Of a stretch of DNA of 64,000 nucleotides, positions 5,530 through 41,757 are shown in pieces; within the stretch, counting starts at the first letter, position 1, and each line of letters starts with the position of its first letter. The notes below the pieces were generated by a model. That model was not told the origin of the DNA. It saw nothing but the letters and a program-made list of their open reading frames with translations, and ran no database searches. The position numbers were made by a program, and so were the translations under genes. The stretch is taken from assembly GCF_002854065.1 (NCBI RefSeq), contig NZ_CP024147.1. The stretch is one strand, 5' to 3'. Source of the DNA: Escherichia coli (GTDB lineage Bacteria; Pseudomonadota; Gammaproteobacteria; Enterobacterales; Enterobacteriaceae).

Positions 5530-5544
5530 GGTAATGACTCCAAC

Positions 5545-6048
5545 TTATTGATAGTGTTTTATGTTCAGATAATGCCCGATGACTTTGTCATGCAGCTCCA
5601 CCGATTTTGAGAACGACAGCGACTTCCGTCCCAGCCGTGCCAGGTGCTGCCTCAGATTCAGGTTATGCCGCTCAATTCGCTGCGTATATCGCTTGCTGAT
5701 TACGTGCAGCTTTCCCTTCAGGCGGGATTCATACAGCGGCCAGCCATCCGTCATCCATATCACCACGTCAAAGGGTGACAGCAGGCTCATAAGACGCCCC
5801 AGCGTCGCCATAGTGCGTTCACCGAATACGTGCGCAACAACCGTCTTCCGGAGCCTGTCATACGCGTAAAACAGCCAGCGCTGGCGCGATTTAGCCCCGA
5901 CGTATCCCCACTGTTCGTCCATTTCCGCGCAGACGATGACGTCACTGCCCGGCTGTATGCGCGAGGTTACCGACTGCGGCCTGAGTTTTTTAAATGGCGG
6001 AAAATCGTGTTGAGGCCAACGCCCATAATGCGGGCGGTTGCCCGGCAT
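5545..6048 (-). CDS. insB: IS1 InsB frame (transposase made as InsAB' by -1 frameshift)
   Basis: 167-aa [19 protein letters not shown]... identical in both IS1 copies; overlaps insA in the -1 frame. Confidence 0.9.
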
Positions 6049-6242
6049 CCAACGCCATTCATGGCCATATCAATGATTTTCTGGTGCGTACCGGGTTGAG
6101 AAGCGGTGTAAGTGAACTGCAGTTGCCATGTTTTACGGCAGTGAGAGCAGAGATAGCGCTGATGTCCGGCAGTGCTTTTGCCGTTACGCACCACCCCGTC
6201 AGTAGCTGAACAGGAGGGACAGCTGATAGAAACAGAAGCCAC
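5967..6242 (-). CDS. insA: IS1 InsA (zinc-finger transposition inhibitor)
   Basis: 91-aa [42 protein letters not shown] with CxxC...CxxC. Confidence 0.9.
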
Positions 6243-6275
6243 TGGAGCACCTCAAAAACACCATCATACACTAAA

Positions 6276-7037
6276 TCAGTAAGTTGGCAGCATCACCGTG
6301 TTGTCCGTGTTCATACCGGTGTGCCTTTGACAACGGTACTCCTTAGAAACTCTCTTCGGACTGTTGCCGAAATGTTTGCGGAACGCATAAATAAAATAAG
6401 ATGTACTGGCATAACCACATTGTTCGGCAATTTTATTGACTGAACCTTCTACGCGTATCAAATTTTTTGCGTGCTGCATTCTGGCATCTAAAAGAATCTG
6501 TGAGAATGTCGTTTGCTCTTGCTTAAGTTTTTTCTTCAACAGGCTTTCACTGATGTACAGGCAGTCACAAATATCTTTCAGCTTCCATGGGTGCGCCAGC
6601 TTCATGTTGACAATATTTCTCACTTTCCCGGAAACGGATAGCACACCGTTAGTTAATAGTGTAATGAAACCTTTGCATGCGGCAAAAATAGACAGGCAAG
6701 AAAAAAGCAAAAGTTCTGAAAAATTATGATGATTGCGTTCTTCCGAGTTGAGATAAGCAATCATTTCATTAAGCAATCCAGTCGGTACATTAGAAGCACG
6801 TAAAAACTTCGCAGGAACAGGCACCGTCACTGTCTGGATGTTAGTGCATTGTAGATATTTTTTAATGGTATTTTCATTAAATCCGATTTCTTTAAAATGC
6901 CGCTCATAAGGTTCAAAATGCGTACGAACAGCGTTATCTACCATCAGGATCTCGCCGTCAGAGAAGGCGTAATCTTTATCTAAAATGTTAGCGTTGAAGG
7001 CATGATGAATAAATATAACAGAACAAACGAGCGACAT
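6276..7037 (-). CDS. ydeO: AraC-family acid-resistance regulator; last 6 codons and stop supplied by the IS1 terminus
   Basis: 253-aa ORF with C-terminal AraC HTH region; reading frame crosses the IS1 junction at 6297/6298 and ends ...NTVMLPTY inside the IS1 end. Confidence 0.85.
   Translation of the reverse strand: MSLVCSVIFIHHAFNANILDKDYAFSDGEILMVDNAVRTHFEPYERHFKEIGFNENTIKKYLQCTNIQTVTVPVPAKFLRASNVPTGLLNEMIAYLNSEERNHHNFSELLLFSCLSIFAACKGFITLLTNGVLSVSGKVRNIVNMKLAHPWKLKDICDCLYISESLLKKKLKQEQTTFSQILLDARMQHAKNLIRVEGSVNKIAEQCGYASTSYFIYAFRKHFGNSPKRVSKEYRCQRHTGMNTDNTVMLPTY
6298..6306. repeat. 9-bp target-site duplication GTGTTGTCC (right copy) of IS1 copy 1, inside ydeO coding sequence
   Basis: identical to 5521..5529. 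Confidence 0.9.
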
Positions 7038-21839: not shown

Positions 21840-21877
21840 GGGGGAACCGCAGAATTCGGAAAAAATCGTACGCTAAG
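21840..21877. repeat. left terminal inverted repeat GGGGGAACCGCAGAATTCGGAAAAAATCGTACGCTAAG
   Basis: matches the right end in inverted orientation at 35 of 38 positions; whether the first G (21840) belongs to the repeat is ambiguous. Confidence 0.8.
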
Positions 21878-22028
21878 CTAACGGTGTTCTCGTGACAGCT
21901 CTTTGACTAGGCTTTCTAAGGCCATTCTGATAGCCCTGACTTCCTGAAAAGCCATGGCTAAAATTTGTGCGGCTAAAAGGGATAACCGATGGTAAAGTAA
22001 GTTATCCCTGTCGAGATACTGAAAAGCG

Positions 22029-23606
22029 TTATCCTCGTTTTTCCCAAAACTGTTTTGCCAGTTCGCTCAGAGCGCTAGTTAACTGAGCGACAGATTTCGC
22101 ACTTTGCAAATTATTCTGCCCGGTCTGTACATTGGTATCAGCAGCATCGCGTATATTGATAATACTGCGGTTTATGTCTTCACTTACTGCTCCCTGCTGC
22201 TCGACCGCAGTCGCTATTTGCGCGTTCATGTCGGTAATTTCGTTAACGCGTTGGCCAATTCCATCAAGAGCTGTAGCTGCTTCCTCTGCGTGAGCTACAC
22301 TCGTGTGCGCTTGCCGACTACTTTGCTCCATGACTGTAACAGCGGATTGCGCTCGCTCTTGTAGAGCGCTGATCATGCTTTGAATATCCGTTGTCGATTG
22401 CTGTGTGCGAGCAGCAAGACTGCGAACCTCATCGGCGACAACAGCAAAACCACGCCCCTGCTCACCAGCACGCGCGGCCTCAATTGCTGCGTTGAGTGCC
22501 AACAAATTCGTTTGCTCGGCGATCCCTCGTATAACGTCAAGAACTTTTGATATCTCGTTACTTTGACCTTCAAGCTCATGAATAACCTGAGTGGCTTGCC
22601 TAATTTCACCTTCAAGGGCAGTGATTGACTGGCTTGTGTGGGCTACCAGACGCTGGCCAGATGCCGTCTCAGTGTCTGCTCTTCCGGCCGCATCTGCAGC
22701 ATGCTGTGCATTGCTCGCAACCTCTTGAATGCTTGCCACCATTTGGTTTACTGCCGTTGCTATTTGATCTGTCTCTGCCTGCTGCTCAACTGTAAGTACA
22801 TTGCTTGACTCAATATCCTTTAGTAGGCCTCGGGTGTGTTCGCTAAGCCGATTTGATGCATCACCTATGCGACCTACTATGGCGCCTGTTTCAGCTTGCA
22901 TCATTCGTAAAGCAAACTCTATTTGGCCAAACTCATCGGTGCGCCCAGTGTAGAGGGATTGACTTAATGGGTTATTGGAAATATTCCTGGCTCTTTCAAC
23001 CAGTCTTCCAAGAGGAGAGAGAATAGCCAAAACACTAACAGAGCTTAAGCTTCCTGACATTAAAGTGGCTAACAATAAGCTGCTTATTGATGTATCAGTA
23101 AGCATGCCGGCAGCCATTGCGCTTGATATAATACTACCCCATATGAGCAAGAGTATTTTCACGGAAAAGCTAGCAGCCAATTTCGGCCTCGCGGCCTTCC
23201 CGCTTCTCAATTGAGCATATAATTTTTCCGCAGCCAAAACCTGCTCAGGTTCAGGCTTGGTCCTTACAGACTGGTATTCAACAATCGAACCATTCTTAGC
23301 TATTGGCGTTACATAAGCACTTACCCAATAGTGGTCGCCATTTTTACAGCGATTTTTTACTAGCCCCATCCATGAGCGGCCAGATTTTAATGTACTCCAC
23401 ATATGCTCAAATGCAGCAGGCGGCATATCTGGGTGTCTTACGATGTTGTGAGGCTGGCCTAATAGTTCTTCCTCAGTGAAACCACTGATTTTAATGAAGT
23501 CAGGATTAACGTACGTGATATGGCTTTGAGGGGAGGTAGTCGAAAGAATATTGGCATCTTTTGGGAGTTCTAAGTTTCGACCCGTCACTGGTAAATTCTG
23601 GCGCAT
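22029..23606 (-). CDS. Aer-like PAS-domain / methyl-accepting-chemotaxis signalling-domain protein (transposon cargo, orfI)
   Basis: 525-aa ORF; N-terminal PAS block resembling Aer ([37 protein letters not shown]), central hydrophobic segment, C-terminal MCP signalling region [35 protein letters not shown]. Confidence 0.85.
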
Positions 23607-23915
23607 AAGAACCTCAAGGGTTGGCTGTTTTATTTTATTGTTTTCGGCATTAAGCCCAATTTCTTGAGCGTTACGATAAAGCTAGCATGGAAACGATAGG
23701 TGCAAGCAAGTTAAGGGTTGCATCGCGCATGTCAATCTAGGCTATACCCTAACTTGATGTCAGGCAGGGCCGCGCCGCTTCGTCAGAATAGAGTCTGCTT
23801 TCCCATTTTTTGACACATGCCCGCGAAGGTTATAGATTTCAGCCTGACAGAAATGGGCTTTGAGGCACAACGGAACAGAAAGTGCACTTAAGCCGCCTTC
23901 AACCAAGGAGACATC
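23607..23915. promoter_or_regulatory. res (resolution) region with divergent promoters between orfI and tnpR
   Basis: TGTCAGGC...GCCTGACA-type dyads (about 23760..23860) upstream of tnpR, typical placement for Tn21-subgroup res sites; exact subsites not resolved. Confidence 0.5.
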
Positions 23916-24476
23916 GTGCAGGGGCACCGCATCGGCTACGTCCGGGTCAGCAGCTTTGACCAGAACCCGGAACGCCAGCTGGAACAAACCCAGGTGAGCA
24001 AGGTGTTCACCGACAAGGCATCGGGCAAGGACACCCAGCGCCCCCAGCTCGAAGCGCTGCTGAGCTTCGTCCGCGAAGGCGATACAGTGGTGGTGCACAG
24101 CATGGATCGGCTGGCCCGCAACCTCGATGACCTGCGTCGCTTGGTACAGAAGCTGACTCAGCGCGGCGTGCGCATCGAGTTCCTGAAGGAGGGCCTGGTG
24201 TTCACTGGCGAGGACTCGCCGATGGCCAACCTGATGCTGTCGGTGATGGGGGCCTTCGCTGAGTTCGAGCGCGCCCTGATCCGCGAGCGGCAGCGTGAGG
24301 GCATCGCCTTGGCCAAGCAGCGTGGCGCGTACCGGGGCCGCAAGAAAGCCCTGTCCGATGAGCAGGCTGCTACCCTGCGGCAGCGAGCGACGGCCGGCGA
24401 GCCCAAGGCGCAGCTTGCCCGCGAGTTCAACATCAGCCGGGAAACCCTCTACCAGTACCTCCGCACGGACGACTGA
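23916..24476 (+). CDS. tnpR: serine resolvase TnpR
   Basis: 186 aa, GTG start with AAGGAG RBS; catalytic N-terminus IGYVRVSSFDQN and C-terminal HTH. Confidence 0.95.
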   Translation: MQGHRIGYVRVSSFDQNPERQLEQTQVSKVFTDKASGKDTQRPQLEALLSFVREGDTVVVHSMDRLARNLDDLRRLVQKLTQRGVRIEFLKEGLVFTGEDSPMANLMLSVMGAFAEFERALIRERQREGIALAKQRGAYRGRKKALSDEQAATLRQRATAGEPKAQLAREFNISRETLYQYLRTDD

Positions 24477-24479
24477 CAC

Positions 24480-27446
24480 ATGCCGCGTCGCTTGATCCTC
24501 TCGGCCACGGAGCGGGACACCCTGCTTGCGCTGCCGGAAAGCCAGGATGACCTGATCCGCTACTACACCTTCAACGACTCCGACCTGTCGCTGATCCGCC
24601 AGCGACGCGGCGACGCCAACCGCCTCGGCTTCGCCGTGCAGCTCTGCCTGCTGCGCTACCCCGGTTACGCGCTGGGAACCGACAGCGAGCTGCCCGAGCC
24701 GGTCATCCTGTGGGTGGCGAAGCAAGTCCAGGCCGAGCCGGCGAGCTGGGCAAAGTACGGCGAGCGCGACGTGACCCGTCGCGAGCATGCCCAGGAACTG
24801 CGCACCTACCTGCAACTGGCCCCGTTCGGCCTGTCCGACTTCCGCGCCCTGGTGCGCGAGCTAACCGAGCTGGCCCAGCAGACCGACAAAGGCTTGCTGC
24901 TGGCCGGTCAGGCCCTGGAGAGCCTACGGCAGAAACGACGCATCCTGCCGGCGCTGAGCGTGATTGACCGGGCCTGCTCGGAAGCCATTGCGCGAGCCAA
25001 TCGGCGGGTCTACCGCGCCCTGGTCGAACCACTCACGGACTCGCATCGGGCCAAGCTGGACGAGCTGTTGAAGCTCAAGGCCGGCAGCAGCATCACCTGG
25101 TTGACCTGGCTGCGCCAGGCACCGCTGAAACCCAACTCTCGGCACATGCTGGAACACATCGAGCGGCTGAAGACATTTCAGTTGGTGGACTTGCCCGAAG
25201 GCCTGGGCCGGCACATCCACCAGAACCGCCTGCTCAAGCTGGCCCGCGAGGGTGGGCAGATGACGCCCAAAGACCTCGGTAAGTTCGAGCCGCAGCGCCG
25301 CTACGCGACCCTGGCCGCCGTGGTGCTGGAGAGCACCGCGACCGTGATCGATGAGCTGGTCGATCTGCATGACCGCATCCTGGTCAAGCTGTTCAGCGGC
25401 GCGAAGCACAAGCATCAGCAGCAGTTCCAGAAGCAGGGCAAGGCGATCAACGACAAGGTGCGCCTGTACTCCAGGATCGGCCAGGCGCTGCTGGAAGCGA
25501 AGGAAAGCGGCAGCGACCCCTATGCCGCCATCGAGGCGGTGATTCCCTGGGACGAGTTCACCGAGAGCGTCAGCGAGGCCGAGCTGCTGGCCCGGCCGGA
25601 AGGCTTCGACCACCTGCACCTGGTCGGCGAGAACTTCGCCACCCTGCGCCGTTACACGCCGGCCTTGCTGGAGGTGCTGGAACTGCGCGCCGCGCCGGCC
25701 GCGCAAGGCGTGCTGGCAGCCGTGCAGACCCTGCGTGAGATGAACGCCGACAACCTGCGCAAGGTGCCGGCCGATGCACCCACGGCCTTCATCAAGCCGC
25801 GCTGGAAGCCGCTGGTGATCACCCCGGAAGGCCTCGACCGGAAATTCTACGAAATCTGCGCCCTGTCCGAGCTGAAGAACGCCCTGCGCTCCGGCGACAT
25901 CTGGGTCAAGGGCTCGCGGCAGTTCCGCGACTTCGACGACTACCTGCTGCCGGCCGAGAAGTTCGCCGCACTCAAGCGCGAGCAGGCCCTGCCCCTGGCG
26001 ATCAACCCGAACAGCGACCAGTACCTGGAAGAGCGTTTGCAGCTGCTGGACGAGCAGTTGGCCACCGTCACCCGCCTGGCCAAGGACAACGAGCTGCCCG
26101 ATGCCATCCTCACCGAGTCAGGGCTGAAAATCACCCCGCTGGATGCGGCGGTGCCGGATCGGGCGCAGGCGCTGATCGACCAAACCAGCCAGTTACTGCC
26201 GCGCATCAAGATCACCGAACTGCTGATGGACGTGGACGACTGGACGGGCTTCAGCCGCCACTTCACCCACTTGAAGGACGGGGCCGAGGCCAAAGACAGG
26301 ACGTTGCTGCTGTCCGCAATCCTCGGTGATGCGATCAACCTCGGGCTGACCAAGATGGCCGAGTCGAGCCCCGGCCTGACCTACGCCAAGCTGTCCTGGC
26401 TGCAAGCCTGGCACATCCGCGACGAAACCTATTCGGCGGCCTTGGCCGAGCTGGTCAACCACCAGTATCGCCACGCCTTTGCCGCCCACTGGGGCGACGG
26501 CACGACCTCATCCTCCGATGGCCAGTGCTTCCGCGCGGGTGGCCGGGGCGAGAGCACCGGGCACGTCAACCCGAAGTACGGTAGCGAGCCGGGACGGCTG
26601 TTCTATACCCATATCTCCGACCAGTACGCGCCGTTCAGCACCCGCGTGGTGAATGTCGGCGTCCGCGATTCCACCTATGTGCTCGACGGCCTGCTGTACC
26701 ACGAGTCCGACCTGCGGATCGAGGAGCACTACACCGACACGGCCGGCTTCACCGATCACGTCTTTGCCCTGATGCACCTGCTAGGCTTCCGCTTCGCGCC
26801 GCGCATCCGCGACCTCGGCGAAACCAAGCTGTACGTGCCGCAGGGCGTGCAAGCCTACCCGACGTTGCGCCCGCTGATCGGCGGCACCCTGAACATCAAG
26901 CACGTGCGTGCCCACTGGGACGACATCCTGCGCCTGGCCAGCTCGATCAAGCAGGGCACCGTCACCGCCTCGCTGATGCTGCGCAAGCTCGGCAGCTACC
27001 CGCGCCAGAACGGACTGGCCGTGGCCCTGCGCGAGCTGGGCCGGATCGAGCGCACGCTGTTCATCCTGGACTGGCTGCAAAGTGTTGAACTGCGCCGCCG
27101 CGTGCATGCCGGCCTGAACAAAGGTGAGGCGCGCAACTCGCTGGCCAGGGCGGTGTTCTTCAACCGCCTTGGGGAAATCAGGGATCGGAGCTTCGAGCAG
27201 CAGCGCTACCGGGCCAGCGGCCTCAACCTGGTGACGGCGGCTATCGTGCTGTGGAACACGGTGTACCTGGAACGCGCCACCCAGGGGTTGGTCGAGGCCG
27301 GCAAGCCGGTGGACGGCGAGCTGCTGCAATTCCTGTCGCCGCTGGGCTGGGAGCACATCAACCTAACCGGCGATTACGTCTGGCGGCAGAGCCGCAGACT
27401 GGAAGACGGGAAGTTTCGGCCCTTACGGATGCCCGGAAAACCTTAG
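24480..27446 (+). CDS. tnpA: Tn3-family DDE transposase TnpA
   Basis: 988-aa ORF starting 4 bp after the tnpR stop; length and organisation typical of Tn21-subgroup transposases. Confidence 0.95.
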
Positions 27447-27479
27447 CGTACGATTTTTTCCGAATTCTGCGGGCTCCCC
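27442..27479. repeat. right terminal inverted repeat (complement reads GGGGAGCCCGCAGAATTCGGAAAAAATCGTACGCTAAG)
   Basis: inverted copy of the left end; overlaps the last codons of tnpA. Confidence 0.85.
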
Positions 27480-27922: not shown

Positions 27923-29515
27923 CTATAACCCAGGCGCTTTCCATAACGACGTCGTCAGTCCATGATCAACCAGCCCCAGCTGATCCTGATAAACTGCCTG
28001 CCACTTATCGCGTGAATCCTGATAAAGTTCATGCTTTTCCGGGTCTGGTGTGTGCGTCCGTTCCCAGCGAACCAGGCGTTCTCCGGTTTCTGCCATTGAT
28101 GAAAAAATTCCGGCACCGACGCCAGCTGCAATGGCACATCCTAATGCAGTGGCTTCTTTGACCACCGGAATATTGACGGGTAATCCCGAGACATCAGCGA
28201 GAATTTGACTCCATAATTTCCCTTTTGAACCTCCGCCTGCAAAGACTAACGATGAAGGATGAATATTCGAGAAATCAGCAATTTGCTGCAAGTTACACGC
28301 TGATACAATCGCCGCATTTTCTTCCAGCGCACGAAACAATGTCGCTTTGTTACATTTATCCGGGTCAATGGATAAGTTAATAAAGGAAGGTGCGGCGTGA
28401 TACCAGGTTTTAAAGCGCATTCTGTCGGAGAATATCGGCATTACGCCCCACGACCCAGGCGGCACCCGACTGGCCATCTCTTCCAGCAGCGTATAGGTGT
28501 CGATGCCTAAACGTTCGGCAATCAGTTTTTCTTCGGCACAGAAAGCATCGCGGAACCAGCGCATGGTGAGTCCGGTAAAAAAGCTTATAGATTCAGCTTG
28601 TACCATGCCAGGAATAACATGGGGATTAACGCGCACGTTCATTTCTGGGTCTGTCACCGGCGCGGCTAAGTTTACAACTTGCTGCCAGAATGTGCCGCCA
28701 AGAACCGCGGTTTGTGCCGGACGCACAACGCCTAACCCCAGGCAACCAAGCTGCACGTCGCCTCCTCCCACGAACACCGGAGTGCCCGCCTTCAGACCGC
28801 AGAGTTCCGCCGCTTGTGAACTTACCACGCCCAGCAATGTGCCGGTTTCTTTGACAGGAGAAAGAATATCGGCACGCAGGCCAGCCATATCCAGCAATGC
28901 AGGTTTCCAGTCACGGATGGTTAGATCAAGAAGTCCCGTGGTGCCAGCGTTAGAGGGATCCACCGCAAGTTCGCCGCTGAGCATATAGGCCAGCCAGTCG
29001 CTGATCATGGTGATGGTTGATGCCTGACGGTAAATATCGGAACGATGGTGCGCCAGCCAAAGTAATCTGGGGATGGCACTTAAAGCCAGCGTTTGTCCGG
29101 TCGCGCGATAAACTTCGTTTTCAAAGGTATTGTTGTGCAGTTCTTTAAGTTCGCTAACTTCGCGCGCCGCTCTGGCATCCACATTGGCGCAGGCCCAGAT
29201 CGGTGTTCCTTCATTGTTATATAAAACAATGCCTTCACGCATCGAACATGCCGAAACGGCAGCGATATACTCCGGGGCTATGCCGGCGTTGTGCAGCGCC
29301 TGGCGCATACACTCACACGCCAGTTGCCAGTTTTTGTTGAGATCAAATTCCATAGAACCAGGAACGTCCGGTACTGCCAGATGCCGCCACTCCGCCTGTC
29401 CCACTGCTATTTGATTGCCTTCCAGGTCGAATATCACAGCCCGAATACTTCCGGTGCCTGCATCCAGCGCCATCAGGTAATACTTTGATTCTGAAGGGGT
29501 AAAGAGTCGAGCCAT
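27923..29515 (-). CDS. lsrK: autoinducer-2 kinase (FGGY carbohydrate kinase family)
   Basis: 530-aa ORF; FGGY-family N-terminus [11 protein letters not shown]; adjacent to lsrR and divergent from the lsr operon. Confidence 0.9.
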
Positions 29516-29593
29516 TAGATTATCCTCGGCTTATGCGTTCTGTCTGTTCCTCTATACGTTCTCCATCATTCCCGGTAATAAGGTCATGCAAAT

Positions 29594-30547
29594 TTAACTA
29601 CGTAAAATCGCCGCTGCTGTGTCCTGATCGGTAACCAGTGCGTTGATATAACCGCCTTTCATTGCAGCGGCAATTGCTTCGGCTTTATTTTCTCCCCCTG
29701 CCACGCCAACCCGGACGGGTATGGTCTTCAGCGCGCTTAAAGGTAAACCAATCAGTTCGTTATGTATTTTAATATCCGTGACAGCGTCACCTTTTGCATC
29801 AAAAAAGTAGCCTAAAATGTCGCCAACCGCCCCTTTTCGGCCAATCATTAACTGTTCGCCCTGGCTGATATAACCGGAGCGAATGATCGTCGCGTCGTCT
29901 TGTTGACTCACGGCCCCAATGCCGACAATCGCCACATCCGCTGCTTGCGCGGCTAACAGAACATCTTTGACGCAATTTTCATTTTTTAGCGTACGGGCAA
30001 TGTCAGCGGAGGATGCCCGCAACGGAGCCGGAATAATATTCACACTGCACGCCGCGTTAAGCTGCCCGATACCCGTCATATAAGAACCGACGCCACCGGA
30101 GAGCGTGACCAGGCGAATTTGCTGTGACGAAATAAAACCACTTAAGCGTTGCAGCGTATTCATGGTTGCCTCGCCAAAACCAATCGCCAGCATCTGTTGT
30201 GGTTGAAGTAAACTCATCAACATATGCGCCGCGCCTATCCCCAGTCGCCCGCCGACATCAGCATCGGCAAGCCCAGGGATCACTCGGACATGTTGCAGCG
30301 AAAACTGACGACGTAATTGTGTTTCATATTCCAGACAGCCTTCAAAGCGAGAATTAATCTGCACGCGAATGATGCCGGACTGATGCCCTTTCTCCAGTAA
30401 TCGCGACACTTTCAAACGGGTCAGGCCGAGACGATCGCTGATCTCACTCTGGGTCAGCCCGTCGTGGTAGTAAAACCACGCGATCCGCGCGACCTGTTCT
30501 TCTTCACACATTCCCTGTTCTGAAATTACCGAATCGTTGATTGTCAT
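29594..30547 (-). CDS. lsrR: SorC-family repressor of the lsr operon
   Basis: 317-aa ORF with N-terminal HTH and sugar-phosphate-binding C-terminal domain. Confidence 0.9.
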
Positions 30548-30615
30548 AATTCATTCTTCACTTTGAACATATTTAAATCTTTAATGCAATTGTTCAGTTC
30601 TTGCGCATTTATATC

Positions 30616-30631
30616 TGTGATGGCAACCACA
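30616..30631. promoter_or_regulatory. candidate CRP site TGTGATGGCAACCACA in the lsrR-lsrA divergent promoter region
   Basis: TGTGA-N6-CCACA resembles the CRP consensus TGTGA-N6-TCACA; the lsr operon is known to be cAMP-CRP dependent. Confidence 0.35.
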
Positions 30632-30795
30632 GTTTGACTCTACGAGCATGAACAAACGCAACCGTGAAAATCAAAATAGCATAAATTGTGATCTATTCGT
30701 CGGAAATATGTGCAATGTCCACCTAAGGTTATGAACAAATTAAAAGCAGAAATACATTTGTTCAAAACTCACCTGCAAAACTGAACGGGGGAAAT

Positions 30796-32330
30796 ATGCA
30801 AACGAGTGATACCCGCGCGTTACCGCTACTTTGCGCCCGCTCGGTTTATAAACAGTATTCAGGGGTTAATGTCCTGAAAGGCATCGATTTTACGTTGCAC
30901 CAGGGGGAGGTCCACGCCCTGTTCGGCGGCAATGGTGCCGGTAAATCGACGTTAATGAAGATTATTGCCGGTATTACCCCTGCTGATAGCGGTACGCTGG
31001 AGATTGGGGGCAACAACTACGTCAGATTAACGCCAGTTCATGCTCATCAGCTGGGTATTTATCTCGTTCCCCAGGAACCGCTGCTTTTCCCAAGCCTGTC
31101 GATAAAAGAAAACATCCTGTTTGGGCTGGCAAAAAAACAGCTCTCCATGCAGAAAATGAAGAACTTGCTGGCGGCGCTGGGCTGCCAGTTTGATCTGCAT
31201 AGTCTGGCAGGATCGCTGGATGTCGCCGATCGCCAAATGGTGGAAATCCTCCGCGGGCTGATGCGCGACTCGCGGATTCTGATCCTCGATGAACCTACCG
31301 CCTCGCTTACCCCTGCGGAAACCGAACGCTTGTTTAGTCGCTTGCAAGAGCTGCTTGCTACTGGCGTGGGTATTGTTTTTATCTCGCATAAGCTGCCGGA
31401 AATTCGCCAGATTGCCGATCGAATTAGCGTGATGCGCGACGGAACCATCGCCTTAAGCGGCAAAACCAGCGAACTGTCTACCGACGACATTATTCAGGCC
31501 ATCACCCCAGCGGTACGGGAAAATCGCTCTCTGCCAGCCAAAAATTATGGCTGGAGTTACCTGGCAACCGCCCACAACATGCCGCAGGAACGTCGGTGCT
31601 GACACTGGAAAATCTGACTGGCGAAGGTTTCAGGAATGTCAGCCTGACGCTAAATGCCGGAGAAATTCTGGGTCTGGCTGGGCTGGTGGGTGCCGGACGC
31701 ACAGAACTGGCCGAGACGCTCTATGGTCTACGTACTTTGCGTGGCGGACGCATTATGCTGAATGATAAAGAGATCAATAGATTATCCACTGGAGAACGTT
31801 TACTGCGCGGTCTGGTTTATCTGCCGGAAGATCGCCAGTCATCCGGACTGAATCTCGATGCTTCGCTGGCCTGGAACGTCTGCGCCCTTACTCATAACCT
31901 TCGTGGATTCTGGGCGAAAACCGCGAAAGATAATGCCACCCTGGAACGTTATCGTCGGGCGCTGAATATTAAATATAACCAACCGGAACAAGCTGCACGG
32001 ACATTATCCGGTGGTAACCAGCAAAAAATCCTGATTGCCAAATGCCTGGAAGCTTCGCCGCAAGTATTGATTGTCGATGAGCCGACGCGCGGCGTGGATG
32101 TCTCGGCGCGTAATGATATCTACCAACTGTTGCGCAGCATCGCCGCACAGAATGTGGCTGTGCTGCTTATCTCCTCTGATCTGGAAGAGATCGAACTGAT
32201 GGCAGATCGTGTGTATGTGATGCATCAGGGCGAAATTACCCACTCTGCACTGACCGGGCGCGATATTAATGTCGAGACTATTATGCGCGTTGCCTTCGGC
32301 GATAGTCAGCGTCAGGAGGCGTCATGCTGA
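30796..32330 (+). pseudogene. lsrA: AI-2 ABC transporter ATPase LsrA, split by a -1 frameshift in an A-run into ORFs 30796..31602 and 31596..32330
   Basis: two ABC ATPase halves (Walker [10 protein letters not shown] and GLVGAGRTE) in different frames; adding one A to the A4 run at 31520..31523 gives a continuous ~511-aa protein. Confidence 0.8.
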
Positions 32331-33352
32331 AGTTTATTCAGAACAACCGTGAAATCACGGCACTGCTGGCGGTGGTGCTGCTGTTTGTATTACCCGGTTT
32401 TCTCGACCGCCAGTATTTAAGTGTGCAAACGCTGACCATGGTTTATAGCAGCGCGCAAATCCTGATCCTGCTGGCAATGGGCGCGACGCTGGTAATGCTT
32501 ACGCGCAATATTGATGTTTCAGTGGGTTCGATTACCGGAATGTGCGCGGTGCTGTTGGGGATGTTACTGAACGCAGGATATTCACTACCTGTTGCCTGTG
32601 TCGCGACTTTACTGCTTGGTTTGCTCGCGGGATTTTTCAACGGTGTCCTGGTCGCGTGGCTAAAGATCCCTGCCATTGTTGCCACCCTTGGCACGTTAGG
32701 GTTGTACAGAGGCATCATGTTGCTGTGGACTGGCGGTAAATGGATTGAAGGGTTACCCGCCGAACTGAAACAACTCTCCGCCCCGCTACTGTTTGGCGTT
32801 TCCGCGATTGGTTGGTTGACGATAATTCTGGTGGCATTTATTGCCTGGCTGCTGGCAAAGACGGCGTTTGGACGCAGTTTTTATGCCACAGGCGATAATT
32901 TACAGGGCGCTCGTCAACTGGGCGTTCGTACGGAAGCCATTCGCATTGTGGCATTTTCGTTGAACGGCTGCATGGCGGCACTGGCGGGAATTGTGTTTGC
33001 TTCGCAGATTGGTTTTATCCCCAACCAGACCGGTACCGGGCTGGAGATGAAAGCAATTGCAGCCTGCGTGCTGGGCGGCATTAGTTTGCTCGGCGGTTCC
33101 GGTGCGATCATCGGTGCGGTACTCGGCGCATGGTTCCTGACGCAGATCGATAGTGTACTGGTGCTGTTGCGCATTCCGGCATGGTGGAACGATTTTATCG
33201 CGGGCCTCGTGCTGCTGGCGGTGCTGGTGTTTGATGGACGCCTGCGTTGCGCGCTGGAACGTAATCTGCGGCGGCAAAAATATGCCCGCTTTATGACGCC
33301 ACCGCCATCCGTTAAACCCGCTTCGTCAGGTAAAAAACGGGAGGCTGCATAA
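32324..33352 (+). CDS. lsrC: AI-2 ABC transporter permease
   Basis: 342-aa polytopic membrane ORF overlapping the lsrA stop. Confidence 0.9.
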
Positions 33353-34344
33353 TGCGTATTCGCTACGGTTGGGAACTGGCTCTTGCCGCACTGCTCGTAA
33401 TTGAGATTGTCGCATTTGGTGCAACTAACCCGCGGATGTTAGACCTCAATATGTTGCTGTTCAGCACCAGTGATTTTATCTGCATTGGCATTGTCGCCCT
33501 ACCGTTGACGATGGTGATTGTCAGTGGCGGGATCGATATTTCGTTTGGTTCGACCATCGGCCTCTGCGCCATTGCATTGGGCGTGCTGTTTCAAAGTGGT
33601 GTGCCGATGCCGCTGGCGATTCTTCTGACCTTACTGCTCGGCGCATTGTGCGGGCTGATCAACGCCGGATTAATTATCTATACCAAAGTTAACCCGCTGG
33701 TGATTACGCTTGGCACGCTGTATCTGTTTGCCGGAAGCGCCCTGCTGCTTTCCGGGATGGCCGGAGCGACGGGGTACGAAGGTATTGGTGGATTCCCGAT
33801 GGCGTTTACAGATTTCGCTAACCTGGATGTGTTGGGGCTCCCCGTTCCGCTGATTATCTTCCTGATATGTCTCCTCGTTTTCTGGCTCTGGCTGCATAAA
33901 ACCCATGCCGGACGTAATGTGTTTTTGATTGGGCAAAGCCCGCGCGTGGCGCTTTATAGCGCGATTCCAGTTAACCGCACCTTATGTGCGCTCTATGCCA
34001 TGACGGGGCTGGCGTCTGCGGTCGCCGCTGTGCTGCTGGTGTCGTATTTTGGTTCAGCACGTTCCGATCTCGGTGCGTCGTTTCTGATGCCCGCCATCAC
34101 CGCCGTGGTGCTTGGCGGTGCCAATATTTATGGTGGTTCCGGTTCCATTATCGGCACCGCCATTGCGGTTTTATTAGTGGGATATTTGCAACAAGGTTTG
34201 CAAATGGCAGGAGTGCCAAATCAGGTGTCCAGCGCCCTTTCCGGTGCGCTACTTATCGTCGTTGTCGTAGGTCGTTCCGTTAGCCTGCATCGCCAGCAAA
34301 TTAAAGAGTGGCTGGCGCGTCGGGCCAATAACCCATTGCCATAA
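33352..34344 (+). CDS. lsrD: AI-2 ABC transporter permease
   Basis: 330-aa polytopic membrane ORF; start overlaps lsrC stop. Confidence 0.9.
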
Positions 34345-34355
34345 AGGATATCTTC

Positions 34356-35378
34356 ATGACACTTCATCGCTTTAAGAAAATCGCCTTACTTAGCGCTCTT
34401 GGCATTGCCGCAATCTCTATGAATGTGCAGGCCGCAGAGCGTATTGCATTTATTCCCAAACTGGTTGGCGTGGGATTTTTTACCAGCGGTGGCAACGGCG
34501 CACAACAAGCGGGTAAAGAGCTGGGCGTTGATGTGACCTACGACGGGCCGACAGAACCCAGTGTTTCTAGTCAGGTACAGTTGATTAATAACTTCGTCAA
34601 TCAAGGTTATAACGCCATTATCGTTTCTGCGGTTTCGCCTGATGGCTTGTGTCCGGCACTGAAACGCGCCATGCAACGTGGTGTGAGAGTGCTGACCTGG
34701 GACTCTGATACTAAACCGGAGTGCCGCTCTTACTACATTAATCAGGGAACTCCCGCCCAGTTGGGAGGTATGTTGGTGGATATGGCGGCGCGTCAGGTGA
34801 ATAAAGACAAAGCCAAAGTCGCGTTTTTCTACTCAAGCCCCACCGTTACGGACCAAAACCAGTGGGTGAAAGAAGCGAAAGCGAAAATCGCCAAAGAGCA
34901 TCCTGGCTGGGAAATTGTCACTACGCAGTTTGGCTATAACGATGCCACTAAATCGTTACAAACCGCAGAAGGAATATTAAAAGCGTATAGCGATCTCGAC
35001 GCCATTATCGCCCCCGATGCCAATGCCCTGCCCGCTGCCGCACAAGCCGCAGAAAACCTGAAAAATGACAAAGTTGCGATTGTCGGATTCAGTACGCCAA
35101 ACGTGATGCGTCCATATGTGGAACGCGGCACGGTGAAAGAATTTGGCCTGTGGGATGTGGTTCAGCAAGGCAAAATTTCAGTTTATGTCGCGGATGCATT
35201 ATTGAAAAAAGGATCAATGAAAACGGGCGACAAGCTGGATATTCAGGGCGTAGGTCAGGTGGAAGTCTCGCCAAACAGCGTCCAGGGCTATGACTACGAA
35301 GCGGATGGTAATGGCATCGTACTGTTACCGGAGCGCGTGATATTCAACAAAGAGAATATCGGCAAATACGATTTCTGA
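34356..35378 (+). CDS. lsrB: periplasmic AI-2 binding protein
   Basis: 340-aa ORF with signal peptide; periplasmic sugar-binding fold. Confidence 0.9.
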
Positions 35379-35404
35379 TGTGCATTACTTAACCGGAGTA
35401 AGTT

Positions 35405-36280
35405 ATGGCAGATTTAGACGATATTAAAGATGGTAAAGATTTTCGTACCGATCAACCGCAAAAAAATATCCCTTTTACCCTGAAAGGTTGCGGTGCGCTG
35501 GATTGGGGAATGCAGTCACGCTTATCGCGGATATTTAATCCGAAAACGGGTAAAACCGTGATGCTGGCTTTTGACCATGGTTATTTTCAGGGACCGACTA
35601 CCGGACTTGAACGCATTGATATAAATATCGCCCCGCTGTTTGAACATGCCGATGTATTAATGTGTACGCGCGGCATTTTGCGCAGCGTAGTTCCCCCTGC
35701 GACCAATAGGCCGGTGGTACTGCGGGCGTCAGGTGCGAACTCTATTCTGGCGGAATTAAGTAATGAAGCCGTGGCGTTATCGATGGATGACGCCGTGCGC
35801 CTGAACAGTTGCGCGGTGGCGGCGCAGGTTTATATCGGAAGCGAATATGAACATCAGTCGATCAAAAATATTATTCAGCTGGTCGATGCCGGAATGAAAG
35901 TGGGAATGCCGACCATGGCCGTGACAGGCGTGGGCAAAGATATGGTGCGCGATCAGCGTTATTTCTCGCTCGCGACTCGAATAGCCGCTGAAATGGGGGC
36001 GCTAATTATCAAAACCTATTATGTCGAAAAAGGTTTTGAACGGATTGTTGCCGGATGTCCGGTACCCATTGTTATTGCTGGCGGTAAAAAATTACCGGAG
36101 CGCGAGGCGCTGGAAATGTGCTGGCAGGCTATCGATCAGGGCGCTTCTGGTGTGGATATGGGGCGTAATATTTTCCAGTCTGACCATCCGGTGGCAATGA
36201 TGAAAGCCGTACAGGCGGTGGTACACCATAACGAAACGGCTGATCGGGCATATGAACTCTATCTGAGTGAAAAACAGTAA
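35405..36280 (+). CDS. lsrF: class I aldolase-like phospho-AI-2 thiolase
   Basis: 291-aa ORF in operon position after lsrB. Confidence 0.85.
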
Positions 36281-36303
36281 CTGCGGATTTAAGGAGAAGA
36301 ATT

Positions 36304-36594
36304 ATGCACGTCACACTGGTTGAAATTAACGTTCATGAAGACAAGGTTGACGAGTTTATCGAAGTTTTTCGCCAGAACCACCTGGGCTCTGTACAGGAAG
36401 AAGGCAATTTGCGCTTCGATGTCTTACAGGACCCGGAAGTGAATTCGCGCTTTTATATCTACGAAGCCTATAAAGATGAAGACGCAGTGGCATTCCATAA
36501 AACCACGCCTCACTACAAAACCTGTGTCGCGAAACTGGAATCTTTAATGACCGGGCCGCGTAAAAAACGTCTGTTCAATGGGTTGATGCCGTGA
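36304..36594 (+). CDS. lsrG: phospho-AI-2 isomerase (antibiotic-biosynthesis-monooxygenase fold)
   Basis: 96-aa ORF with RBS GGAGAA; last gene of the lsr operon. Confidence 0.85.
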
Positions 36595-40201: not shown

Positions 40202-41461
40202 TCAGACAACTTCCTCACCGTAACGCATAGTGCTGGTACGGTTGCGCCCATCTTTCTTCGAGCGATACAGACACGTATCGGCTTCGACCATCAATTTATT
40301 AAAGTCATCGGTCAGCGTTCGGTACGATGCGCGACCACTACCGACGCCAATACTTACCGTGAGATAAAGCGTTTTTTGTTGCCAGGTGAATGGTTGCAGT
40401 TCAACGCCTTTACGGATTTTTTCCGCCATTAGCAGACCATCGACAGGATTCACCGACGGCACTGCAACAGCAAATTCTTCGCCGCCCATTCGCGCCACCA
40501 GCCCCTTATCACCGACAATCTTCTGGATATGCCGGGCAAACACGCTTAACACTTTATCGCCACATTCATGTCCATAGTTATCGTTAATACTTTTGAAATA
40601 GTCGATATCAAGCAGCATGACAGTCAGATGTTGTGTCTGTTTCAGCGATGGACTTTTCAGCGCCTCATAAAGACCGGACCGTGAGTAAACCTGAGTCAGA
40701 AAATCAAAGTCGGCTCGCAGCGCAACTTGCTTCATTAGCGAATTGATCGCTGCCACGCTAAAAGAAACCATAATTGGGCATATCGCCATCGTGGCAATAC
40801 CGAGACGTGCGGAGAACATTTCCGGAATGGAGAACGGCGAACCGACCGAGATATCAATCACCGAATTAGCCACCAGTACGATTTCCACCGCACCGGTGAC
40901 AAAGGTCAACAGACATGTTACCTGCGGCGTATAGCGCACTGCACACCAGATTAATGCAGGCAGCGGGAACGCCAGACTCCCCGCTCCACCAATGACTACC
41001 GAGGCAATAACCGACACAATAAGCGCGATGGCGGGCATCATCTGTTCTGCTTTAAAGCGCGGCAGCACTCCAGGAATAGCCAACGTCAGCATACAAGGCA
41101 CGATCAACACGCCCGTTGAGAATTGCTCACTGAACCAGTCCGCAAGCAAAGGCCAGAAATCCAGACTATCAATACTGACCGAACCAATCGCCCCGACAAT
41201 AGCGCATAATAATGCGGCAATCAGACAGTAATTAAATAGCCGTAAGGCACTTACTGGCTCATACTTATTTTTCCCCAGACGCTTATCCCGCACGACCAGT
41301 AAGGCGACGGTAACAATAAACATCATATTGGAGAAATTGATAGCCAGTGAAACCAGTCCCCATTCGGTGGTTATGGCATCATAAACCAGCATCGCCACAT
41401 AACTGATCGCGTAGTAATGCAGTCGATTAAGCCAGACATAGCGGGCAAACACCCCCGCCAT
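40202..41461 (-). CDS. yneF: membrane-anchored diguanylate cyclase (GGDEF)
   Basis: 419-aa ORF; N-terminal transmembrane segments, C-terminal GGDEF domain with RMGGEEF; true start uncertain (see findings). Confidence 0.7.
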   Translation of the reverse strand: MAGVFARYVWLNRLHYYAISYVAMLVYDAITTEWGLVSLAINFSNMMFIVTVALLVVRDKRLGKNKYEPVSALRLFNYCLIAALLCAIVGAIGSVSIDSLDFWPLLADWFSEQFSTGVLIVPCMLTLAIPGVLPRFKAEQMMPAIALIVSVIASVVIGGAGSLAFPLPALIWCAVRYTPQVTCLLTFVTGAVEIVLVANSVIDISVGSPFSIPEMFSARLGIATMAICPIMVSFSVAAINSLMKQVALRADFDFLTQVYSRSGLYEALKSPSLKQTQHLTVMLLDIDYFKSINDNYGHECGDKVLSVFARHIQKIVGDKGLVARMGGEEFAVAVPSVNPVDGLLMAEKIRKGVELQPFTWQQKTLYLTVSIGVGSGRASYRTLTDDFNKLMVEADTCLYRSKKDGRNRTSTMRYGEEVV

Positions 41462-41757
41462 TACGCCATTCAGGGCCAGAAAAGAGAAAGTTCGTGAACC
41501 AGCCGTAACTCTGCACCAATAAAATAGAACAGCGTGGTTAGCGCAAAAATAGCGATGCTATTACGTAGCAGATGACCTTCCTGGAACAAACGGAAAGTTG
41601 AAATGGGGTGTACATGCATTAATTATCTGTCCATACAATTGCGGGTGGCAATTATCTCAACGTAATAAGTAAATTCTCATAAAGGATAGCATGTTCGCTG
41701 ACAGCGGCGGCAAATAAAGGTACCCTGGGAATGCTATTTTATCGTTTTCCGCAATTC

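Follow-up and report, generated by a model that had tools for sequence, protein, structure and literature searches.

An lsrA frameshift in an Escherichia coli clone is very probably a genuine, vertically inherited loss-of-function mutation

The lsrA gene in the window, the 64,000-nucleotide stretch of E. coli DNA analysed here, is interrupted by the loss of one adenine from a short A-run, and this is very probably a genuine, vertically inherited loss-of-function frameshift. The parts of the gene are as follows.

30796..32330, plus strand: lsrA (interrupted), 1535 nt, the intact form being expected to have 1536 nt
31520..31523, plus strand: A4 homopolymer, one base short of the A5 of intact lsrA through the 1-bp deletion; codon 243 (K to N) is the first altered codon
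30796..31602, plus strand: lsrA N-terminal fragment, 268 codons; residues 1-242 native, followed by 26 out-of-frame residues and a TGA at 31600-31602
31596..32330, plus strand: lsrA C-terminal fragment, 244 codons from a GTG, corresponding to residues 268-511
31522..31599, plus strand: mistranslated part of the inter-domain linker (native residues approximately 243-267), which holds a second A5 run at 31540-31544

The original prediction described the C-terminal end of the first ABC half, and the ORF recovered from the sequence at 30796..31602 (268 aa) ends in just this way; the second half begins, as had been stated, with GTG 31596 in a different frame and, according to the ORF map, ends at 32330 (244 aa). 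It had also been proposed that the second frame, read upstream of this GTG, gives a string continuous with the first half. The second frame does read through, while the string as written is a composite, the residues 'AVRE' belonging to the first frame. The addition in silico of one A at 31520-31523 yields an uninterrupted LsrA of 511 aa, which scores 953.9 bits with the LsrA family profile and bears out the claim that an A5 at this position would join the two halves. The native part of the N-terminal fragment includes the complete first nucleotide-binding domain (NBD) and the C-terminal fragment corresponds to the complete second (degenerate) one, so that the linker of approximately 25 residues is the only part of LsrA that is mistranslated and both domains persist as separate ORFs. 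GTG 31596 specifies the V in VLTLENL, where NBD2 begins, and overlaps the stop codon of the N-terminal half (GTGCTGA), while an AGGA is found at 31586-31589, 6 nt upstream. The duplex predicted between this start and the anti-Shine-Dalgarno (SD) sequence has an energy of -4.3 kcal/mol and is the weakest among the lsr starts, the others ranging from -5.4 to -10.3. The gene also holds an A7 run at 31131-31137 and an A6 run at 32023.

LsrA, which binds ATP for the LsrACDB ABC importer of the quorum-sensing signal autoinducer-2 (AI-2), is represented by E. coli K-12 b1513, a 511 aa tandem-NBD ATPase of the CUT2/ribose type (NCBIfam NF011967). The repaired protein aligns with the NF011967 equivalog profile from end to end (profile positions 1-510), far above its cut-off of 586 bits, whereas the N-terminal ORF (448.7 bits, profile 1-258) and the C-terminal ORF (453.3 bits, profile 268-510) both remain under it. 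In the repaired protein, Pfam places its two ABC_tran domains at residues 27-169 and 280-431, which in the window are split over two ORFs, and the alignments of single-domain or generic ABC families to LsrA stop at approximately residue 236-238 and resume at approximately 268-280. The repaired gene is therefore like LsrA in its end-to-end profile match, its two ABC_tran domains and its location in a canonical lsrRK-lsrACDBFG locus. The gene as found in the window differs from LsrA in that its frame is broken at codon 243 and that the two tandem ABC NBDs no longer lie on one polypeptide. Since each ORF falls under the family cut-off and only the repaired protein passes it, lsrA is here a pseudogene and not an intact member of the family.

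The genomic context is that of LsrA, the ORF map showing lsrRK divergent from lsrACDBFG, and the locus is identical over 9.5 kb to the annotated lsr locus of strain CUWW06.

27923..36594, no strand assigned: whole lsr locus, in which all genes but lsrA are full length
27923..29515, minus strand: lsrK
29594..30547, minus strand: lsrR
32324..33352: lsrC
33352..34344: lsrD
34356..35378: lsrB
35405..36280: lsrF
36304..36594: lsrG
30922..30922, plus strand: clade-specific T in place of the ancestral C; the resulting LsrA L43F lies one residue ahead of the Walker A glycines and is among the nonsynonymous changes fixed on the clade's stem branch

Around the locus, an IS1 sits within the neighbouring autotransporter gene and a Tn3-family element of 5.6 kb is found 445 bp past lsrK; the window is without the IS1 that CUWW06 has in ydeE.

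In order to see how rare the A4 allele is, the 221-bp stretch around it was compared with 5,426 complete E. coli genomes, and 4181 of them have a match. Only two genomes match without a gap at 100% identity; among the matches listed, the others span one extra base, consistent with an A5. Exact searches agree with this, the 60-mer centred on A4 being found in 2 of the 4139 complete E. coli genomes that have the stretch and a 60-mer carrying T at 30922 in 2 of 4115. The two RefSeq complete genomes are CUWW06, from wastewater in Thailand, and 100416, from human stool in The Gambia, and in both of them lsrA is flagged "frameshifted" by PGAP. Between the window and CUWW06 there are 6 SNPs in 24.6 kb, and between the window and 100416 there are 15 SNPs, along with a few indels, in 30 kb; IS1 positions, prophages and a Tn3-family insertion set them apart as well. 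Going by these sequence differences, the window is a third, distinct genome of the frameshift lineage. Beyond complete genomes, the exact 268-aa product occurs in approximately 208 contigs (approximately 292 blocks) of the NCBI, ENA, JGI and Logan assemblies, which come from many unrelated sequencing runs, and the exact 244-aa C-terminal half occurs in 163 contigs. Throughout, the A4 allele is linked to the SNP at 30922 and to four more fixed SNPs, and its spread is strictly clonal. The repaired haplotype with F43, which a revertant would carry, had zero matches among approximately 15 billion proteins.

Intact relatives of the clade could be identified as well. The best among the RefSeq complete genomes has 99.1% identity over 9.5 kb; the true sisters are not among these genomes and were located through an exact-protein look-up with the repaired protein in its L43 form (511 aa), which is present in 31 blocks. 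Five sister loci (L024-L028) have the extra A at the 31520-31523 column. Over 9487 bp, only 8 SNPs and the single-base indel separate two of these, L027 and L028, from the window, and both read A5 in a context that is identical for hundreds of bases on either side. The intact sister lineage, of which GCA_038070995.1 is an example, is thus approximately 0.1% diverged from the frameshift clade. Altogether, what we find is a 1-bp deletion (A5 to A4), shared by descent within a clade that has intact close relatives, with further decay of the locus, as is characteristic of an inherited small-indel pseudogene.

This further decay is seen in the pattern of substitutions, for which 12 members of the frameshift clade were aligned over 20.8 kb. 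Within the clade the lsr genes have 17 nonsynonymous and 4 synonymous changes (17N:4S), as compared with 14N:13S in the genes that flank the locus in these genomes (hipA, hipB, the autotransporter gene, tam, yneE and uxaB) and 5N:6S in the lsr genes of the intact sister genomes; the SNP density within the clade is similar, with 2.6 per kb for lsr and 2.8 per kb for the flanking genes. On the stem branch of the clade the lsr genes show 5N:0S, the substitutions being LsrK V248F, LsrR V255A, LsrA L43F, LsrD I25T and LsrB G72S. Taken together, the lsr genes of the frameshift lineage have 22N:4S against 19N:19S in the pooled controls (Fisher two-sided p=0.007); few SNPs underlie each contrast, and the individual N:S contrasts lie at p=0.02-0.07, only the pooled one reaching 0.007. 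The corresponding dN/dS-like ratio is approximately 1.8 (range approximately 1.4-1.8) for lsr in the frameshift lineage versus 0.27-0.33 in the controls, and it is not significantly greater than 1 (binomial p=0.20). Recent polymorphism always inflates dN/dS, an inflation that is addressed by the flanking-gene and sister controls, while the exact-protein look-up fixes the N-terminal half as invariant in most loci, a bias that runs against the claim of relaxed selection. Among the 17 nonsynonymous changes are the loss of the lsrR start codon in 100416 (ATG to AGG) and of the lsrB start codon in SRR26276524 (ATG to ATT). In addition, lsrK of 100416 has lost 138 bp in frame, with an IS1 directly adjacent. 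Given the excess of nonsynonymous changes and the losses of start codons, the locus therefore behaves as unconstrained sequence. As judged from these counts, lsr in the frameshift lineage looks like a locus under relaxed selection, as would be expected had the transporter truly been knocked out, and not if a split ATPase were still at work.

The clade is not alone in carrying a frameshifted lsrA. Other truncated forms of LsrA, drawn from the same 90%-identity protein cluster, include P0003 (322 aa, in at least 1000 contigs) and P0005 (316 aa), both disrupted inside NBD2, and two forms that end at the same TGA as the N-terminal half of the window, after the same out-of-frame linker. One of the latter, P0014 (GDN59169.1, 268 aa), reads ...REKSLSASQNYGWSY... 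and has lost one A in the neighbouring A5 run (equivalent to 31540-31544) on another haplotype. The other, P0046 (268 aa), has the same A4 and retains Leu43. It was considered as an intermediate in which the frameshift preceded L43F, and this was dropped when its DNA (L029) proved to be a different haplotype with 118 SNPs relative to that of the window. The A4 of P0046 may have arisen a second time, independently, or have been brought in by a short tract of recombination. Judging from these alleles, lsrA is repeatedly frameshifted, at sites that include both A5 runs of the linker.

The original prediction had left open whether the lesion is a genuine mutation or a homopolymer sequencing error, and these data favour the former. 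A change of a single base in homopolymer length is the commonest class of error in long-read and in 454 or Ion data, and a genome that is truly A5 could be miscalled as A4 in this way during sequencing or assembly. Yet the run is just 4-5 bases long, two RefSeq complete genomes and some 200 further contigs from independent projects and pipelines share the allele together with its fixed SNPs, and near-identical sisters with the same flanks assemble as A5. This clonal pattern across multiple projects is beyond the reach of a homopolymer miscall, and the allele is therefore genuine and inherited; we regard an artefact as extremely improbable. We give just as little credence to the idea that full-length LsrA is still made from the A4 allele, through -1 ribosomal frameshifting or transcriptional slippage, or that the A-run acts as a reversible ON/OFF tract. 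The lesion does lie in an A-run, with the second A5 run 20 nt downstream inside the shifted stretch, and the frame would be regained by a -1 shift at any point within 31522-31599. However, an X XXY YYZ heptamer is absent from the shifted frame over 31500-31602, and the frameshift is not a conserved signal, the ORF being uninterrupted in nearly all E. coli. Runs of 4-5 A are also far too short for appreciable RNA-polymerase slippage or phase variation. A phase-variable contingency locus has a long tract (typically at least 7 bases) and ON and OFF versions segregating within the clone; the window departs from this, and the ON version would be the very F43 form that was absent from the protein search. 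The relaxed selection on lsr likewise argues against retained expression.

There is a caveat to the loss of function in that two half-proteins could be made from the interrupted gene, as suggested by the complete NBD ORFs, the overlapping stop and start and the well-spaced AGGA. The lesion might then represent a functional gene fission, in which NBD1 with its 26-aa junk tail and a translationally coupled C-terminal half reassemble on LsrCD as an ATPase. What speaks for this is the position of the lesion, which touches residues 243-267 only, between the ABC-domain alignments; the position of GTG 31596 at the very start of NBD2; the fact that gene callers call both halves in all members of the clade; and the independent linker frameshifts in other backgrounds, namely P0014 in the second A5 run and P0046/L029 in the same run. 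Besides, for some eukaryotic ABC transporters activity is reconstituted when the two half-molecules are expressed together. Nevertheless, the two A5 runs offer a purely mutational cause for the hits in the linker, and truncations are not limited to the linker, as the common P0003 frameshift lies in NBD2. The GTG has the weakest SD duplex of the operon, the dN/dS-like ratio of lsr in the lineage exceeds that of the controls severalfold, and the losses of the lsrR and lsrB start codons and of part of lsrK in some members would be unexpected were transport still useful. No split CUT2-type ATPase, solved or described, was found: a search of solved structures returned generic ABC transporters only, with no ribose/CUT2-type ATPase, no split precedent and no precise boundaries. 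Overall, we consider a functional fission unlikely. Slightly less likely again is the more specific proposal that a natural fission of a CUT2-type tandem-NBD ATPase powers LsrCD, with the linker recurrence (this clade, P0046/L029 and P0014) reflecting a tolerance of splits beyond mutational bias. It is also doubtful, to a greater degree than for fission though less so than for an artefact, that the frameshift is real but secondary, Lsr having first been disabled by another change such as LsrK V248F, LsrR V255A, LsrA L43F, LsrD I25T or LsrB G72S. The indel and these five fixed substitutions all fall on one stem branch, and LsrK V248F or LsrA L43F, for example, could have been the first inactivating hit; moreover, the trigger of lsr pseudogenisation is often unidentifiable, as pointed out by Brito et al. 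(PMC3595036). Against this, the lsrA frameshift is the only unambiguous null lesion common to all clade members, and the five substitutions are mostly conservative with none known as inactivating. Further, 5N:0S is itself the pattern expected from neutral drift once an earlier knock-out has occurred.

A genuine inherited frameshift in lsrA thus remains the preferred explanation, and we infer the following sequence of events. Replication slippage would have removed one A from the A5 run within the sequence for the inter-domain linker of LsrA. Translation would then lose the frame at codon 243 and stop at 31600-31602, so that no full-length tandem ATPase is produced. The LsrACDB importer, presumably left without its ATPase, would no longer provide high-affinity, AI-2-induced uptake in the clone. 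This frameshift, and not an amino-acid change on the stem, is probably the inactivating event, and the remaining lsr genes, intact in the window, would no longer be kept by selection and would be decaying.

The original prediction had spoken of an inactivation of AI-2 uptake. The loss of the Lsr transporter ATPase stands, while the wording is too broad, since K-12 mutants in the transporter genes, including lsrA, are merely less efficient in the removal of AI-2 (PMC3595036) and uptake of AI-2 that is independent of Lsr exists, with lsr being widely absent in phylogroup B2 (PMC12263705). Brito, Rocha, Xavier & Gordo (2013, PMC3595036) reported that E. coli keeps luxS and repeatedly loses lsr, inactivation having arisen independently at least 8 times among 44 genomes. 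In the same study, small indels of 1-2 bp were behind 6 of the 34 lsr pseudogenes in E. coli and Shigella, and insertion sequences were found to flank decaying lsr operons. The window resembles these pseudogenes in the locus, the small-indel class, the mobile elements near lsrK (IS1 and Tn3-family) and the later decay. It differs from them in that the allele and its clade lie outside the 44 genomes and that the decay is at an early stage, with the other lsr genes full length. The data fit neutral decay, and as far as the substitution patterns go selection for the loss would not be required.

ABC importers with separately encoded NBD subunits do exist, such as OppD/OppF and DppD/DppF, which are anciently separate, co-adapted and under purifying selection. 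If both halves of LsrA were expressed, the window would share with them two NBD polypeptides per permease pair, which would be no more than a resemblance. The split in the window differs from that of OppD/OppF in being a recent accident, with a junk tail, a weak start and relaxed selection.

For annotation, lsrA in this genome should be entered as a frameshifted pseudogene, with no extra A supplied on the assumption of a sequencing error. Both the phenomenon of lsr pseudogenisation and this very allele are already in the public record and annotation, and the case is an ordinary one. It provides an early-stage example, with a single null lesion while the rest of the locus in the window is intact, a close intact sister and a measurable relaxation of selection. 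The clade and its sister are a handy natural pair for the fitness effect of Lsr loss, with no new question opened. The clone joins the many E. coli lineages that would produce AI-2 without taking it up through Lsr, in line with the "conserved production, labile reception" of Brito et al. 2013.

Among the haplotypes that carry an intact lsrA and are sisters to the frameshifted clade (L024-L028), L026 (ERZ28535814) displays clustered SNP blocks which it has in common with L029, the distant haplotype. The blocks are equivalent to the following window positions:

30266-30900, clustered SNPs of L026
32575-32890, clustered SNPs of L026
33585-35709, clustered SNPs of L026

Their sharing with L029 points to recombination tracts inside the lsr locus.

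Independent lsrA frameshifts are also present in other lineages. The truncated LsrA protein P0014 results from the loss of one A in the second A5 run of the inter-domain linker (window 31540-31544). P0046, encoded by L029, has an A4 identical to that of the window in a haplotype that is 118 SNPs distant, through either an independent recurrence or a short recombination tract. A third truncated LsrA, the 322-aa P0003, was found on at least 1000 contigs. Besides, further lsr lesions were observed in single members of the lsrA-frameshift clade. In strain 100416 (L005), lsrK has lost 138 bp in frame (equivalent to window 28617-28754), and the lsrR start codon is changed from ATG to AGG (30546); in SRR26276524 (L011/L020), the lsrB start is changed from ATG to ATT (34358).

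The surroundings of the locus carry mobile elements. A Tn3-family element of about 5.6 kb (21841-27478), inserted 445 bp past the lsrK stop, contains:

22029-23606, minus strand, PAS-domain methyl-accepting chemotaxis protein
24480-27446, plus strand, Tn3-family transposase

This element is missing from the clade mates CUWW06 and 100416, but it occupies the same site in other E. coli, for example FORC_042. Two IS1 copies were also found in the window. The copy at 20437-21221 disrupts the ECSE_1600-family autotransporter gene adjoining lsrK, whose ORF (15549-20420) is shortened when compared to the 1806-aa protein of the clade mates; the other (5530-6297) lies between a ydeN-like sulfatase gene and ydeO. 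IS1 positions differ in the clade mates, being within ydeE in CUWW06 and abutting lsrK in 100416. Damage to ydeE itself differs between these two RefSeq genomes: in CUWW06 the gene carries the IS1, in 100416 it has an internal stop. The window ydeE has neither lesion. The window positions concerned are:

51400-51411, 12 bp of the window that are missing from strain 100416
52098-52106, second site of this comparison

Finally, the uxaB-yneG interval contains a GGDEF diguanylate cyclase gene (40202-41619, minus strand) that is likewise split in the window:

41470-41619, minus strand, 49-aa ORF, gene fragment
40202-41461, minus strand, 419-aa ORF, gene fragment

The gene is annotated as frameshifted in CUWW06 and 100416, and it is called as a single unbroken ORF in the clade member ERR7450849 (L022). 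Thus, this second pseudogene is polymorphic inside the lsrA-frameshift clade.
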